Shown here: positions 7,704 to 26,870 of the stretch, piece by piece | Layout of the letters: the number at the start of each line of letters is the position of its first letter | How positions within the stretch are numbered: the first letter of the stretch is position 1 | Sequence record: PV467749.1 | Reading direction: 5' to 3' (one strand) | Source of the DNA: a phage | DNA length: 64,000 nucleotides | Program-made: the position numbers and the translations under genes | Notes under the pieces: model-generated | Databases searched by the model: none | Seen by the model: only the letters and a program-made list of their open reading frames with translations | What the model was told of the DNA's origin: nothing

Positions 7704-8588
7704 TTAAATTACATATGGTTTATAGTAATGAATCTCGTTTGATATTGCAGCGAAGACTTTGTTATTAAATCTTTCACCATAATCACGAAGAGATTCACCT
7801 TCTTCGCTTTCAATAAAGTAATTATATACTGGTAGACGTGCGGTGTCAACACCTATAAATGATTTCATGTAAATTTGTACTAAACGATTCATTCCTTCAT
7901 TTAAGCATTGCACCTCAAAGTGCTTGATACCTTTGTCTAAATGTTTGAATGCATTAATGATACCACGTTTAAAATCACGCTGCATAGTACTGAATAGATT
8001 CTCAGGGAACACTGTAATAGGTGACATTGATTTAAGAATGTATGTATCTTTAGCATTCTTAATATACTCAATGAAGCAGTAGTTAACGTCAGGCTCGATA
8101 GAACGATCAGCGTTATGATACCAGTACTTAAACTCACTGTACTCAGCAAACTTATGCTGGCGTAATGCGTTACAATCCTCACACAGTGCAGTCATGTTCT
8201 CTTTATCATTGCCACCCTGGAGACAGTCCAGTACATTATGGTCTAACGTCATGCGTACAAGGCGTTTACCTTTAAGTACATAAGGTCTGAATTTATAACG
8301 GTCTTTAGTACTGTGCTTATGTAAAGTGAATACCACATTGGATTCACCACAACAATCACATTTAAAGCCATCGCGTGACATTACATGAATGAGTTTTCGA
8401 GTATTTGGGCCGAACTCAGATTTAGTAATGTTGCCAACAATTTCTGATGGGTCGTAGTATTTTGAATTCCGGCGAATCAATTCATCTATAGTGCTCATTT
8501 TATATTTCTCCAGCAAGACACTCAAAAGTGACTTTTTTAACTTCGATAACTCGTACCAAATAGTATCCATGAAAGAAATTAAAACCAA
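7704..8588 (-). CDS. HNH endonuclease (probable homing endonuclease)
   Basis: Cys cluster CDCCGESN and LDHNVLDCLQGGNDKENMTALCEDCN, HNH-type motif; true start may be internal Met. Confidence 0.6.
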   Translation of the reverse strand: MVLISFMDTIWYELSKLKKSLLSVLLEKYKMSTIDELIRRNSKYYDPSEIVGNITKSEFGPNTRKLIHVMSRDGFKCDCCGESNVVFTLHKHSTKDRYKFRPYVLKGKRLVRMTLDHNVLDCLQGGNDKENMTALCEDCNALRQHKFAEYSEFKYWYHNADRSIEPDVNYCFIEYIKNAKDTYILKSMSPITVFPENLFSTMQRDFKRGIINAFKHLDKGIKHFEVQCLNEGMNRLVQIYMKSFIGVDTARLPVYNYFIESEEGESLRDYGERFNNKVFAAISNEIHYYKPYVI

Positions 8589-9026: not shown

Positions 9027-9559
9027 GGACTTTTAATATTGACGGGATTTGAGGAAGGGATTTTTCTTCCCCCCGCACGGAGGGAAATTTGACGCTGATG
9101 GTATCAGAGCTATTGCATTGAAGATTACTCATAACGAGTGCGAAAGCGGGTCATCCTGTTTCTCTCTACTTCAGTTTCATATGACGGTCTACACTTTTAA
9201 ACATAGTGTATCTTCATTAAGTATCTATGCAATCAAATACTTAATGTGAGTACTCAAATTTTGGACGCAACTTTCCTGTACAAAATTCGATAACTCTCCC
9301 TTAGATAATTCGTAAGGTGTTATCCTTATATGTCTATCGAGGAACCACCAGCTATCCTAACGTGGTTCTTTATACAGCCGCATTGCCGTGAGGGGTTCAA
9401 ACTATGCCCACATCTAACGGGTTTCTTTTGCTGTTCGCTACAATGAAAAGCTCATCTATCCTTTACATTTTCAAGTGAAGTAGGGGAAGATTGTCAGTAC
9501 CAGTACTGTCATTGTGATTGTACATAGATCATTGTATCACCATTAATAAATTTGTCCCA

Positions 9560-9586
9560 TAAAAAAAGGCTGACCGAAGTCAACCC
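9560..9586 (-). terminator. rho-independent terminator
   Basis: Same GGTTGAC-TTCG-GTCAGCC hairpin plus T7 run immediately after sigma-factor stop. Confidence 0.65.
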
Positions 9587-9593
9587 TTTAATC

Positions 9594-10559
9594 TTAAAAA
9601 TCTTCGAACTCATAACCTTTTGTCTTAACCATCTTACGCAGTCGTTCCATTGCTTCAGAGTACTTACGGTGCAATGAAGAACGAGCAGTCATGACCTTAC
9701 CCTTCTCATCTTCAAAACCACTCTCAATGATTTCTCGTAGCGTTTCTGGTTCAGAATAAGAACCAATACCATGTACACGTTCAATCAATTCACGGTCTTT
9801 GGCAGATAGGTTACTCATCATTTCTGCAATACTTTGTACCAGTGGGGTACTGACAGTTTCTACGCCTAAGTTGTAATCAGGTTCAACTGAAGTAACAATG
9901 TCAGATAATGTACTTTCTGAATCATTACTCATTTTCATATTCAATGCTACATAAGTGTTATTGTAAGTTAGACAATTCTTAACGTGTTGAATCTCAATAC
10001 CAGTCTCTTTTGACACCATCTCAGGAGTTGGGTATTTACCATGTTTCCTTTGATACTCTTCTACACAACGTTTCACATAAATGTTATTAACACTCATATA
10101 ACGTGGGAAATGCACTAGATAATTAGCATCCGCACTTTCGTTATAGATTGTCATGTACACAGTTGTTGTTGCATATGTAATGAACTTAACATTTTTGGTA
10201 GTGTCGAACGTATGAATTGCTCGCATTAAACCTTCAACACCATAAGAAATCTTATCTTCAAATGGGATAAAACATGTACACTTACGTGCAACACTTACTA
10301 CCATTGGATAGTTGTAGCGAACCAAAAGGTCAATGTTCTTTTCAACGTCAATACCATCACGCACTGCTTGGATGAGCATTTCATTCGTTATCCCTTTAGG
10401 GCGAGTTAAGCTGATACCTGTTTTTGGTTTCTCAAACTTGTGACCGTCATGTTCTTCTTCTTCGACGGAATCAAGAGCCTCTAATACGTTGACTTCTTCA
10501 CTAGCAAAACACTCATCCAGTACTTCTTCAGAAATTGCATTTAAATCAAGCTTTTTCAC
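9594..10559 (-). CDS. RNA polymerase sigma factor, sigma-70 family
   Basis: Region 2-like PMVVSVARK...EDKISYGVEGLMRAIHTFD...KFITYATTTVYMTI and region 4-like LSAKDRELIERVHGI...ETLREI...RKYSEAMERLRK. Confidence 0.65.
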   Translation of the reverse strand: MKKLDLNAISEEVLDECFASEEVNVLEALDSVEEEEHDGHKFEKPKTGISLTRPKGITNEMLIQAVRDGIDVEKNIDLLVRYNYPMVVSVARKCTCFIPFEDKISYGVEGLMRAIHTFDTTKNVKFITYATTTVYMTIYNESADANYLVHFPRYMSVNNIYVKRCVEEYQRKHGKYPTPEMVSKETGIEIQHVKNCLTYNNTYVALNMKMSNDSESTLSDIVTSVEPDYNLGVETVSTPLVQSIAEMMSNLSAKDRELIERVHGIGSYSEPETLREIIESGFEDEKGKVMTARSSLHRKYSEAMERLRKMVKTKGYEFEDF

Positions 10560-10581: not shown

Positions 10582-11079
10582 TCAAAAACGGTATACATTA
10601 ATATTATCATCGGTATAGATATCATGGTTATGAACATCCATGAAGGTATCAAATACCTTATCAAGAAGAGTATTATACTCTTCATGTACTGCTGCATCAA
10701 GCATGTATTCACCACCACTACCCATAAAGAATGTATAATCATTATGGAGATAATCAATCTTCTTGGTAAACTTACCCTTATTAACGATTAAGTGAATGAT
10801 GTAATCTTTTGACACAAGAACACAGTGACAACTCGCCTTGCGGTCTGGTATCACAGTCTCTTGTGAAATCAAGTATCTCAGTACTTTGTTAATTTCACTA
10901 ACTTCACCGCAAGCACTAAACAGTCGGTCGTGTACATACAATGTTTTTTGTGAAACTACACCATAACTAAGTTTTGGTTTCAACGGGAATAGGTTCAAAA
11001 ATGAACGTTGCTCAGTTGATGTCACTTTTGAATCAGTAAGTAATACTCCCAAGCGTTTATCAATATAAACAGTCGTCAT
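10582..11079 (-). CDS. putative Ntn-hydrolase peptidase (HslV/proteasome-beta-like)
   Basis: N-terminal MTTVYID (Thr after Met) and GSGGEYMLDAAV resembling HslV GSGGxYAxAAA. Confidence 0.4.
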   Translation of the reverse strand: MTTVYIDKRLGVLLTDSKVTSTEQRSFLNLFPLKPKLSYGVVSQKTLYVHDRLFSACGEVSEINKVLRYLISQETVIPDRKASCHCVLVSKDYIIHLIVNKGKFTKKIDYLHNDYTFFMGSGGEYMLDAAVHEEYNTLLDKVFDTFMDVHNHDIYTDDNINVYRF

Positions 11080-11080
11080 A

Positions 11081-11500
11081 TTAAACCTTATCTAAAAATT
11101 TATCATAGATATAAAATTCTTTATCGTTGAATACATTAATTCTAGTATCGAAGCGTTGTAGTGTATTCATGTATAATGTTCTTTTTAAATAAAAATACAA
11201 TGCAACAAATTCAGATATATGCATATTCTTTTTATTATTACATAAATTCTTTAGCATTTCAATGCTATCAAAATCATCTTTATCATACCTATACTGGTAA
11301 AAATTATATCTATTGAACTGACACTCATAGATACGAAGTGCCATTATGTCAATACATGCTTTAGATTTACAGTACTTATTCAATACGTCATAATCACCCA
11401 CACATAATGCTACGAAGATTTTATGTGCAAGTGTTGCTTTGCCTTCAATCGTATAATAGCCAAAAAATTTAATGATTAAGTAATGTATAAATCTAAGCAT
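11081..11500 (-). CDS. hypothetical protein
   Basis: 139-aa ORF. Confidence 0.45.
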   Translation of the reverse strand: MLRFIHYLIIKFFGYYTIEGKATLAHKIFVALCVGDYDVLNKYCKSKACIDIMALRIYECQFNRYNFYQYRYDKDDFDSIEMLKNLCNNKKNMHISEFVALYFYLKRTLYMNTLQRFDTRINVFNDKEFYIYDKFLDKV

Positions 11501-11505
11501 TGGAT

Positions 11506-11766
11506 TTAGAATTTCTCCGAAATTACAAGTGTATCATCATAGTCATCAGCAACGGAGTTCAGTACTTCCAAATTACTTTCACCAGAAATACTTTGTACTT
11601 CGTTCAAAAGATAGTTTAGATCAACTTTAGTTACTTTTTCTGAATCAAACACACAGAAAGTCAATTCAGCGTTTGGACAGATCTTCTTCAGATTATCAGC
11701 AACAACTTGTTTGAAGTTAAAAGATGGGGAAGCAACCAGGTTAACTGCAACGAGAATAGATTTCAT
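11506..11766 (-). CDS. hypothetical protein
   Basis: 86-aa ORF. Confidence 0.4.
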   Translation of the reverse strand: MKSILVAVNLVASPSFNFKQVVADNLKKICPNAELTFCVFDSEKVTKVDLNYLLNEVQSISGESNLEVLNSVADDYDDTLVISEKF

Positions 11767-11840
11767 AATGTTTTCCTTTTTAGCTGATAATTAAATTAGG
11801 AGCACATTGTACTCCATGTTATTGGTTAAGTCAAATACTT

Positions 11841-22248: not shown

Positions 22249-22301
22249 ATAGTATGGAGTATTTATTTTCAAGAAAAATGTTATTTCTAAGAATATATTT
22301 G

Positions 22302-22372
22302 TGGTCAATATTAGAATCGAACTAATGACTCAGACTTACAAGATCCGTGTTATACCATTTAACTAATCAACC
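22302..22372 (-). tRNA. tRNA-Thr (anticodon TGT)
   Basis: Hand-folded cloverleaf: acceptor GGTTGAT/ATTGACC, D-stem GTTA/TAAC, anticodon stem CGGAT/GTCTG with loop CTTGTAA, T-arm ATTAG-TTCGATT-CTAAT. Confidence 0.65.
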
Positions 22373-22376
22373 AGAT

Positions 22377-22424
<48 letters not shown>

Positions 22425-22425
22425 C

Positions 22426-22467
<42 letters not shown>

Positions 22468-22544
22468 TACGCATCAACTTGATTAAGCCAAGTGTCGGCA
22501 TAGGTGCAGCACTACAAAGTACTTCAAGCTGTTTAGCAGTTTCT

Positions 22545-22813
<269 letters not shown>

Positions 22814-22832
22814 AACTGAATACTTACATCCC

Positions 22833-22867
<35 letters not shown>

Positions 22868-22912
22868 ATAGGCACACACGGAACTGCTTTATAAGCTACT
22901 GAATCGGGAATC

Positions 22913-23180
<268 letters not shown>

Positions 23181-23189
23181 TAATACCCG

Positions 23190-23591
23190 CTAGTAGTTTA
23201 AGTCTGCGGCGTTGAAGACACCAAGTGAAGTCTTACCACGTAGTTTAGGTGAAATGACATATTTTGTCAATTTCTTTTTACCGTACCAGTGATTGAATTC
23301 GTCTTCAGTAACATGTGGGTTCTGGAAATCGTATTCACGTTTCTTATGAAGTTTTTTAGCTTGTTCTGCAATCTTAGTTCGTTGATCTTCTGGAATGTCG
23401 AATGTATTGTTACGTTTGCACCATTCGTGCACTAATGCTTCCAGAAGGAACTGTTCAGTTTCTTTGACTAGAGTGATTTTAGTCAAGCCTTTTTCGATGT
23501 TCATATAATCATCGACATATCCATTCCAAATAACAATCTCTGGATTGCCGTCAATCTCTTGAAGCATTTTGATCAAGTCATTCTTTTTCAT
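23190..23591 (-). CDS. hypothetical protein (paralog of 22962..23177)
   Basis: 133-aa ORF sharing N-terminal segment with neighbour. Confidence 0.5.
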   Translation of the reverse strand: MKKNDLIKMLQEIDGNPEIVIWNGYVDDYMNIEKGLTKITLVKETEQFLLEALVHEWCKRNNTFDIPEDQRTKIAEQAKKLHKKREYDFQNPHVTEDEFNHWYGKKKLTKYVISPKLRGKTSLGVFNAADLNY

Positions 23592-23599
23592 TTAAATTC

Positions 23600-23857
<258 letters not shown>

Positions 23858-23866
23858 ATTTGTTTC

Positions 23867-24052
23867 CTATGAAATGAATGTAGCGTCAATTCCCATTATA
23901 AATGCAAATATACCAAACAATATCAACCCGATTGGTACAAAGATCATAGATCTATTTCCATGTTTCGATAAAAATCGCTCAACTGTAATTAAACGTATTG
24001 ATATCGGAACCATTATGATAATATACAATATTGAAAGAATTAAAAGTTGCAT
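23867..24052 (-). CDS. small membrane protein
   Basis: 61 aa, two hydrophobic helices. Confidence 0.4.
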   Translation of the reverse strand: MQLLILSILYIIIMVPISIRLITVERFLSKHGNRSMIFVPIGLILFGIFAFIMGIDATFIS

Positions 24053-24080
24053 TTTAATTTCCTATTGTAATTTCGTTTTG

Positions 24081-24153
24081 CGACTCTGGAGGAACTCGAA
24101 TCCCCAACCAATTAATTAACAGTTAATCGCACCACCTATTGTGCTACAGAGTC
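24081..24153 (-). tRNA. tRNA-Asn (anticodon GTT)
   Basis: Acceptor GACTCTG/CAGAGTC, D-stem GCAC/GTGC, anticodon stem ATTAA/TTAAT with loop CTGTTAA, T-arm GGGGA-TTCGAGT-TCCTC. Confidence 0.7.
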
Positions 24154-24161
24154 ATAATTAT

Positions 24162-24368
24162 TTATAAGCCATGTCTTTTCAAAAATCTAGCAAACACATT
24201 TTTGGAAGCACCATAACTTTCATATATACTAACTTTTTTCTCACCATTATTCAAACGTTTTTTGATATCTTCTATGTTATCTTCTAAACGTTTTACGTTT
24301 GCAAATTTCTTAGATGGTATATTATTTTTGGTTCTATAATTCAGTACTGAACCTGAACTAATATTCAT
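24162..24368 (-). CDS. small putative DNA-binding protein
   Basis: 68 aa; C-terminal KVSIYESYGASKNVFARFLKR resembles homing-endonuclease-associated HTH (NUMOD-like), unverified. Confidence 0.35.
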   Translation of the reverse strand: MNISSGSVLNYRTKNNIPSKKFANVKRLEDNIEDIKKRLNNGEKKVSIYESYGASKNVFARFLKRHGL

Positions 24369-24389
24369 TATTTTATTTCAAAGTTTGTG

Positions 24390-24694
24390 AGCCATCTGTG
24401 AGTCGAACACAGTACCTAACGATTCGTATAATCTATAGTTTTCACTATAGTACGGACTATATCATCATCCCATAGGGATGCCGGACGCTAATGATGTATT
24501 ACACAGTAAGATCGTACTGTACCATCTAGTCTCTGCACCTTCCCAATACGCTTATTGGGCTTGGCTCAGGATTGTCATCACCATTACGTGTTAAGATTTC
24601 CCTGAATTCATCCAGTTTTTCAATCACCATTACTGATGAAAGTCACCATTGTCGATGAGTCGTTTGCTCTAACCACCGTGAGCTAATGGCCCGA
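24390..24694 (-). tRNA. tRNA-Met/Ile (anticodon CAT) interrupted by group I intron
   Basis: 5' exon 24657..24694 (GGGCCAT TA GCTC..GAGC A AACGA CTCAT) and 3' exon 24390..24426 (AA TCGTT AGGTA CTGTG-TTCGACT-CACAG ATGGCTC A) join into a 75-nt cloverleaf. Confidence 0.7.
24427..24656 (-). other. group I intron (IC3-like) in tRNA anticodon loop
   Basis: Insertion after anticodon U36, last intron nt G; contains GAAGGTGCAGAGACTAGATGGTAC, near-identical to the P7/J8-7 core of known tRNA group I introns as I recall it. Confidence 0.65.
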
Positions 24695-24699
24695 TTTAG

Positions 24700-24938
<239 letters not shown>

Positions 24939-24961
24939 ATTAATTATATCAGTACTTAATC

Positions 24962-25339
<378 letters not shown>

Positions 25340-25416
25340 ATCACCAACTTTAATTAAAAAAATGGATGGTGACGCTTTTAAACGCCGCTGTTAATTCAGC
25401 TTTATAACCACCCGTT

Positions 25417-25626
25417 TTAACTTGCCTTTCGGCTACCTTGACGTGGGGCGTACAGGCTACTAAAAGCAACTACTGTAAACATATTTCCACGCCTTACCCT
25501 TTTAAATAAAAGTCCATCCGGTTTTCCAGTTTGGTGAAGGATAGTCACCTCTAGTTTAAACCTGCTAGTCAAGTAATAATTGCCTATCGTCCAATTATCA
25601 AACCCGTCTAGGTTAACATTCACCAC
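25417..25626 (-). CDS. hypothetical small protein
   Basis: 69-aa ORF with good RBS (AGGAAG) but located in tRNA region; could instead be structured RNA. Confidence 0.3.
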   Translation of the reverse strand: MVNVNLDGFDNWTIGNYYLTSRFKLEVTILHQTGKPDGLLFKRVRRGNMFTVVAFSSLYAPRQGSRKAS

Positions 25627-25700
25627 TTCCTAGAGTACCAGAGATCTTGTTCTGGATTGCATCGACGTAGCTTACACCATATACGTCTGATTGTGGAATT

Positions 25701-25726
25701 CATTATATCAGTACTGAACTATTTAG

Positions 25727-25731
<5 letters not shown>
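25701..25731 (-). promoter_or_regulatory. sigma-70-like promoter (TTGACT-17-TATAAT), copy of repeat
   Basis: Minus strand TTGACT AAATAGTTCAGTACTGA TATAAT; about 30-bp element repeated at 26123..26152. Confidence 0.5.
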
Positions 25732-26152
<421 letters not shown>

Positions 26153-26160
26153 CTTTTTAT

Positions 26161-26321
<161 letters not shown>

Positions 26322-26325
<4 letters not shown>

Positions 26326-26482
26326 ATTCGTACCAGTAGTTCAATTAAGTACATTTCATATGCTGGATCGTTGATAAGTTTATCATACAGATGTGGCTCT
26401 GAAATGAATTCCCAATGATACTTTAGCCATTTACCGATACCCGAATATCTAAAATTAATATCATTCATCCATTCTTCATGTG

Positions 26483-26486
<4 letters not shown>
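26322..26486 (-). CDS. MTHEEW small-protein family, copy 2 (54 aa)
   Basis: MTHEEWMNDINFRYSGIGKWLKYHWEFISEPHLYDKLINDPAYEMYLIELLVRI; ATGA overlap with neighbours. Confidence 0.45.
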
Positions 26487-26647
<161 letters not shown>

Positions 26648-26649
26648 GG

Positions 26650-26750
<101 letters not shown>

Positions 26751-26754
26751 ATTT

Positions 26755-26870
<116 letters not shown>

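Follow-up and report, generated by a model that had tools for sequence, protein, structure and literature searches.

A 165-residue phage protein is supported, by its predicted structure and its conserved residues, as a divergent homologue of the proteasome/HslV-type Ntn peptidases with a full predicted catalytic set. Its gene lies on the minus strand (positions 10582-11079) of the window, the 64,000-nucleotide stretch of phage DNA analysed here (sequence record PV467749.1). Our preferred reading, to which we give a probability of roughly 60%, is that the gene encodes a catalytically competent MEROPS T1 threonine peptidase subunit, which would act in the cytoplasm during infection and would probably be produced early, at the same time as the sigma factor that the neighbouring phage gene encodes.

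The gene and the phages that carry it

The preliminary description had reported an open reading frame (ORF) with an MTTVYID start and a GSGGEYMLDAAV segment, and the ORF listing does contain it at these coordinates, on the minus strand and with an ATG start. The N-terminus of the product reads MTTVYIDKRLG and the segment named above covers residues 120-131. A longer N-terminus is impossible, because the preceding in-frame stop lies just four codons before the ATG. The gene is native and under selection, since it has the same GC content as the whole window (34.9% against 35.0%) and since comparison with the 75%-identical orthologue of phage phAPEC6 gave a pN of 0.16, far below the pS of 0.72, indicating purifying selection.

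The 4 kb around the gene are 99% identical to WPEC5, fEgEco12 and Ecwhy_1, Escherichia jumbo phages of the 121Q/PBECO4/Rak2 lineage with genomes of 350-385 kb. By tblastn, the protein was found in 52 phage records, distributed over phages of Escherichia (33), Klebsiella (10), Salmonella (8) and Erwinia (1). Most GenBank records label the orthologue "hypothetical"; those of fEgEco12 and Turkey3 name it "ATP-dependent protease subunit HslV" and "ATP-dependent protease", respectively, and the fEgEco12 genome paper gives the HslV-labelled orthologue no discussion.

The gene and its principal features are as follows, with residues numbered along the 165-residue product.

10582..11079, minus strand: coding sequence of the proteasome-like Ntn (threonine) peptidase homologue, 165 aa, with a PHROG family of its own (phrog_24804)
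11074..11079, minus strand: codons of Met1 and Thr2, the latter being the putative nucleophile (proteasome Thr1; aligned with Thr1 of HslV and of 20S beta5)
11032..11034, minus strand: codon of Asp16, equivalent to proteasome/HslV Asp17, in a TDS[RK] motif like the ADSR of beta5 (alignment register)
10957..11028, minus strand: long beta-hairpin at the S3/S4 position, residues 18-41 (model strands 18-27 and 31-41; hhalign gap in HslV)
10945..10947, minus strand: codon of Lys45, equivalent to Lys33 (aligned with HslV K33)
10831..10902, minus strand: helix H1 (residues 60-72) and the loop after it, residues 60-83 in all, with no counterpart of the helix H2 found in HslV and 20S beta (model secondary structure; hhalign gaps opposite HslV ~66-90)
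10714..10722, minus strand: Gly120-Ser121-Gly122, with Ser121 equivalent to HslV Ser124 and proteasome Ser129 (conservation, register, codons read directly)
10612..10623, minus strand: Asp153-Thr156 (D-x-Y-T), equivalent to proteasome Asp166 and Ser169 and to HslV Cys159 and Thr162 (conservation of D153, register)

Predicted fold

An AlphaFold2 model built on an alignment of 27 family sequences had a pLDDT of 94.0 and a pTM of 0.85, all five models lying at 93-94, and superseded an unusable one (pLDDT 54) that had been built with 11 close homologues. The model shows an alpha-beta-beta-alpha Ntn sandwich of the proteasome type. The best 11 Foldseek matches among PDB structures were HslV chains (E 6.6e-6 to 5e-5, TM 0.51-0.60), and unrelated Ntn hydrolases, acid ceramidase for example, reached at most 7.9 in the structure comparison. 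Structure prediction followed by comparison with HslV was among the checks put forward in the preliminary description, which took the lack of a predicted Ntn fold as a refutation, and an Ntn fold was obtained; its suggestion of a proteasome/HslV-like Ntn hydrolase is supported by this model, by the HslV chains that head the structural matches and by the active-site residues described below.

Two departures from HslV were seen in the model. A single helix, H1, lies between strands 52-58 and 84-89, and the hairpin at the S3/S4 position is about 12 residues longer than in HslV, with indels that vary its length among family members. Insertions are known to occur at S3/S4, next to the active site (PMC8665760).

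Conservation of the active-site residues

Across 27 homologues, down to about 20% identity, M1-T2-T3, D16, G58, G120, G122 and D153 are invariant, T15, T20, K45 and S121 are conserved in at least 90%, and nearly every member has T or S at position 156. The N-terminal and GSG motifs are thus not due to chance, being conserved over this range of identity. When the family profile was aligned with beta5/beta8 subunits, TT fell on Thr1-Thr2, TDSR on ADSR (Asp17), GSGS on Ser129 and D-x-Y-S on Asp166/Ser169. The hhalign register against HslV paired T2 with T1, D16 with D17, K45 with K33, S121 with S124 and T156 with T162. At the oxyanion-hole glycine (HslV Gly45, 20S Gly47) hhalign left a gap, and the equivalent residue, S55, varies among Ser, Thr and Val; a glycine may be dispensable at this point because the contact is made by the backbone. 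The invariant G58 was aligned by hhalign with HslV Gly48.

Sequence searches and extent of the family

The case for homology to the proteasome family rests mainly on the predicted structure and on the register of the motifs, because PF00227 and the NCBIfam HslV models were not matched and hhalign against HslV reached a probability of only 45%. A Pfam search with the 165-residue protein gave no family at E up to 10, PF00227 included, and PF00227 was reached by two of the 27 relatives only, at E 0.0013 or weaker. The NCBIfam HslV equivalogs TIGR03692 and NF003964 (cut-offs of 157.75 and 137 bits) gave no match at E up to 1. Among PDB sequences, the sole phmmer match of the protein was OspA, which we rejected as spurious, and an 11-sequence profile found nothing; the list returned by the family profile was headed by 18 weak matches (E 0.035-0.49), all of them catalytic beta5/beta8 subunits. 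With the single E. coli HslV sequence, hhalign aligned a GSGG-centred fragment only (7% probability), and with a five-sequence HslV profile it aligned the full length (146 columns, E 2.2e-4, the 45% given above). That profile was made of the E. coli HslV sequence and four of its tblastn matches from the phage collection, in which E. coli HslV had matched only records resembling bacterial DNA filed as phage, namely Salmonella genome contigs and short contigs marked UNVERIFIED.

Judged by profile searches, the family is small and isolated. A search of 1.84 billion representative proteins yielded no more than 17 clusters at E <= 1e-3 and did not extend to canonical HslV. Two more searches (5.8 billion sequences) added five sequences, and none of the three provided a bridge to a larger named family, all of them remaining inside a set of about 30 clusters. 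The family also has members in a Stephanstirmvirinae phage of 147 kb and in metagenomic contigs of unrelated phages. In PHROGs, the protein was assigned to phrog_24804 (E 1.8e-86), annotated "unknown function", with a secondary match over residues 1-130 to phrog_1040, the "peptidase HslV family" (E 2.8e-6); of the 27 sequences in the family, 19 were matched by the phrog_1040 HMM, the strongest at E 7.8e-18. About 20 phage proteins in BFVD share the fold, and one alone bears a functional name (HslV). In the literature searched, we found no functional or biochemical study of any phage proteasome homologue.

Genomic context

The neighbourhood of the gene contains the following features.

9594..10559, minus strand: phage sigma-70-family factor gene, 22 nt downstream of the peptidase gene (PF04542, PF04539; RpoD/RpoS-type NCBIfam matches)
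11081..11766, minus strand: two small ORFs of 139 aa and 86 aa upstream of the peptidase gene, with gaps of 1 nt and 5 nt (ORF listing)
11799..11834, minus strand: terminator-like hairpin overlapping a sigma-70-like promoter match (consensus matches only)

The peptidase gene stands in a long run of small same-strand genes, and its adjacency to the sigma-factor gene is shared by the Asteriusvirus phages phAPEC6 and EJP2, by the Klebsiella Alcyoneusvirus KP13-7 (48% identity) and by a contig of metagenomic origin (42% identity). More distant family members do not share it, and the adjacency may simply be inherited gene order. Beyond the closest phages, the 139-aa and 86-aa ORFs do not accompany the peptidase gene. 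We considered the 139-aa ORF, which ends 1 nt before the peptidase gene, as a conserved partner and discarded it, as it showed no homology to the upstream genes of KP13-7, EJP2 and the P0011 contig. The hairpin and promoter match may mark the start of a four-gene unit; promoter and terminator scans near the peptidase gene showed no enrichment over shuffled sequence. A link of the gene to defence or anti-defence was dropped, PADLOC giving no match.

The corresponding region of the relative CBB is suspected of being the early, host-takeover region (PMC5259590). This, together with the position of the peptidase gene 22 nt upstream of the sigma-factor gene and within a block of small genes, makes early expression probable by analogy. 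Pectobacterium phages, and hence CBB, are absent from the tblastn matches of the peptidase protein; therefore, the sigma factor is not dependent on the peptidase.

Several other elements were observed in this part of the genome. The sigma factor itself is RpoD/RpoS-like, with regions 2 and 3 detected, and a second gene of fEgEco12, g336, annotated as a putative sigma factor, lies beside baseplate genes. Directly downstream of the sigma-factor gene is a gap of about 460 nt that is poor in ORFs (window 9133-9593); the matching stretch of fEgEco12 (L001 13489-14151) contains no annotated CDS, and Rfam found no family in the gap at the gathering threshold. A 294-aa ORF with CxxC...HN...CxxC motifs (window 7704-8588, minus strand) may represent a mobile homing-endonuclease gene that lies close to the one for the sigma factor, since its fEgEco12 counterpart, g522, is annotated as an HNH endonuclease. 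Farther along the window, a phage tRNA cluster on the minus strand (22301-26844) comprises Thr(tgt), Asn(gtt), Ser(gct) and Ser(tga) genes and a borderline tRNA-like match at 26672-26750. Within it, a full-length group I intron (24433-24747, minus strand; RF00028, 99.1 bits, E 1.9e-24) sits between tRNA-Asn (24080-24153) and tRNA-Ser (24847-24936).

Other proteases and ATPases of the phage

We searched all ORFs of 98% of the fEgEco12 genome for paralogues and for partners of the kind that HslV has. The family HMM found the peptidase gene alone. An HslV HMM found a second gene, g216 (PP777464.1, 85128-85721, plus strand), encoding 197 aa with an MTC start. The product of g216 is a clear member of phrog_1040 (E 2.6e-22), a family that hhalign aligned with HslV at a probability of 96.6%, and relatives of g216 are widespread in T5-like, Aeromonas, Vibrio and other phages; we did not retain it in the peptidase family, as it is too distant (hhalign E 0.011). 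A phmmer query with HslU over the same ORFs gave only a weak match to a ClpA/B-like protein, g327 (E 3.5e-5), so we conclude that the phage has no HslU. The further genes of fEgEco12 that bear on proteolysis are these.

L011 18077-20365: g327, 762-aa ClpA/B-like double AAA+ ATPase
L009 30543-31238: g207, ClpP (PF00574, 1.3e-41)
L009 34170-34778: g214, weak ClpP-like protein
L013 1795-2340: g414, annotated as protease adapter (phrog_15940), no Pfam match

There is also a T4-type prohead protease, g348 (PF03420, 8e-21), which adjoins the portal and major capsid genes.

Proposed mode of action and alternatives

From the observed fold, residue conservation and genomic context we infer the activity, oligomeric state, timing, substrates and unfoldase partner of the protein as follows. 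The 165-residue protein has no propeptide. Methionine aminopeptidases remove Met before Thr, and E. coli HslV likewise starts with MTT and needs neither propeptide nor autoprocessing. In the same manner, the host methionine aminopeptidase would strip Met1 and expose Thr2. The hydroxyl of this threonine would then attack the scissile peptide bond, with its own free amino group and Lys45/Asp16 serving as the proton shuttle, and Ser121, Asp153 and Thr156 would keep the active site in shape. By analogy with its relatives, the protein would have to assemble into ring oligomers to be active. It would act in the cytoplasm of the infected cell and not in the virion, and would probably be made early along with the sigma factor. 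We favour a mode of action that does not depend on HslU over a complex of the classical HslVU type, because the phage lacks HslU and because the apical H1/H2 face, the side that HslV turns towards HslU, is altered. The protein could then work as a stand-alone enzyme or with another partner, for example the ClpA/B-like ATPase of the phage, and the loss of H2 might prevent the stacking of rings.

The leading alternative is a surrogate HslV, whose dodecamer would dock on host HslU, or would mix with host HslV, and so redirect ATP-dependent degradation to targets useful to the phage. HslV being the best structural match, the names given to the orthologue in the two GenBank records and the lack of HslU in a phage (98% of fEgEco12 searched) whose E. 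coli host encodes one all agree with this. Nevertheless, we consider it unlikely, given that the HslV equivalogs of NCBIfam, with cut-offs of 137 and 158 bits, are unmatched, that H2, part of the HslU-facing side, is missing while the S3/S4 hairpin is enlarged, and that the D153 position resembles Asp166 of 20S beta and not Cys159 of HslV. The paralogue g216, far more HslV-like (hhalign 96.6%), would suit such a role better. It is quite improbable that the protein is a non-degradative enzyme of proteasome fold, such as a sequence-specific, connectase-like transpeptidase/ligase or an amidase whose substrate is a small molecule or a modified peptide.

Given how far its sequence diverges from those of active enzymes, the protein might instead be a catalytically silent decoy or scaffold, titrating host HslU or another factor, for instance. 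Inactive proteasome-fold subunits lose their catalytic residues, whereas here all of them are invariant or nearly so in 27 sequences down to about 20% identity, and we regard this explanation as very improbable. A part in virion maturation had been one of the roles suggested in the preliminary description, and prohead maturation proteases are indeed common in phages, of which this one is large and complex. But the phage has a T4-type core protease beside its portal and major capsid genes, plus ClpP-type proteins, and the peptidase gene is remote from the head genes, standing in a group of small genes next to a sigma factor. Furthermore, the published virion proteome of phAPEC6 contains the prohead protease but not the orthologue gp067c (PMC7247149). 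With a prohead protease of its own in the phage and gp067c missing from the virion, a virion role is unlikely, and we give the idea of a prohead protease hardly any credence. A threonine peptidase subunit acting in the cytoplasm remains our preferred reading.

Biological meaning

A more specific scenario, which we offer as speculation and hold to be rather unlikely, is that this homologue without H2, co-transcribed with the sigma factor, is an early, HslU-independent host-takeover protease. It would selectively destroy host proteins, for example sigma factors, regulators or anti-phage defence proteins, and thereby allow the phage sigma factor to capture RNA polymerase. Host HslVU, for its part, helps to degrade sigma-32. 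If the scenario were true, the jumbo phage would, with g216 and its ClpP/ClpA-like genes, bring a multi-protease proteostasis toolkit into the cell.

The family offers a practical entry point to phage proteasome-type peptidases, because its members are compact and free of a propeptide, have their predicted catalytic residues intact and occur in E. coli phages that can be cultivated and whose host is tractable. Questions that could be approached in this way are the viral use of a proteasome-type peptidase, its action without an HslU-type unfoldase and the quaternary structure of a subunit lacking H2. The gain in annotation is modest: a gene mostly called "hypothetical" becomes a "proteasome-like Ntn peptidase". 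We caution against the label "ATP-dependent protease subunit HslV" for this phage gene.

Comparison with known proteasome-type systems

The 165-residue protein is not HslV in the strict sense, because PF00227 and the NCBIfam HslV models are unmatched, a single helix is found in place of H1 and H2, and the S3/S4 hairpin is longer. Compared with HslV (ClpQ; MEROPS T1B; TIGR03692/NF003964), it lacks helix H2, has the S3/S4 extension of about 12 residues, carries Asp153 at the position of Cys159 and has a residue other than Gly at the position of Gly45; moreover, no hslU gene is found, adjacent or distant, in the phage genome (98% of fEgEco12 searched). At D153 the protein is like 20S beta (Asp166) and unlike HslV. 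It differs from the 20S beta subunits (beta5/beta8; PF00227) in the absence of a propeptide, of H2, of the C-terminal H5 and of an alpha-subunit partner.

With the proteins of phrog_1040, such as AGC_0103 of the T5-like phage Eps7 and the paralogue g216, it shares the fold class, an MT- start and an origin in enterobacterial phages. The members of phrog_1040, however, retain an H2-like segment and give a confident alignment with HslV (hhalign probability 96.6%), and the similarity of the family described here to them is marginal and limited to the C-terminus (hhalign E 0.011).

Phage-encoded proteasome homologues (PPH) were catalogued by Fuchs et al. in 2021, with WP_042125023.1 as the representative of their sequence cluster. 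PPH are proteins of about 140 residues without insertions, singled out with their relative RPC as being without H2 (PMC8665760). Compared through that published description, the 165-residue protein is like PPH in being encoded by a tailed phage, in its compact group-I (HslV/BPH-like) form, in having no propeptide and in the absence of helix H2. It is longer than PPH, and the part of the added length that could be located is the extension of the S3/S4 hairpin. Because the model lacks H2 and has an extended S3/S4, its predicted architecture is PPH-like with an added hairpin. Proteasome homologues of phages are thus already known, and the protein described here adds a divergent member to them.
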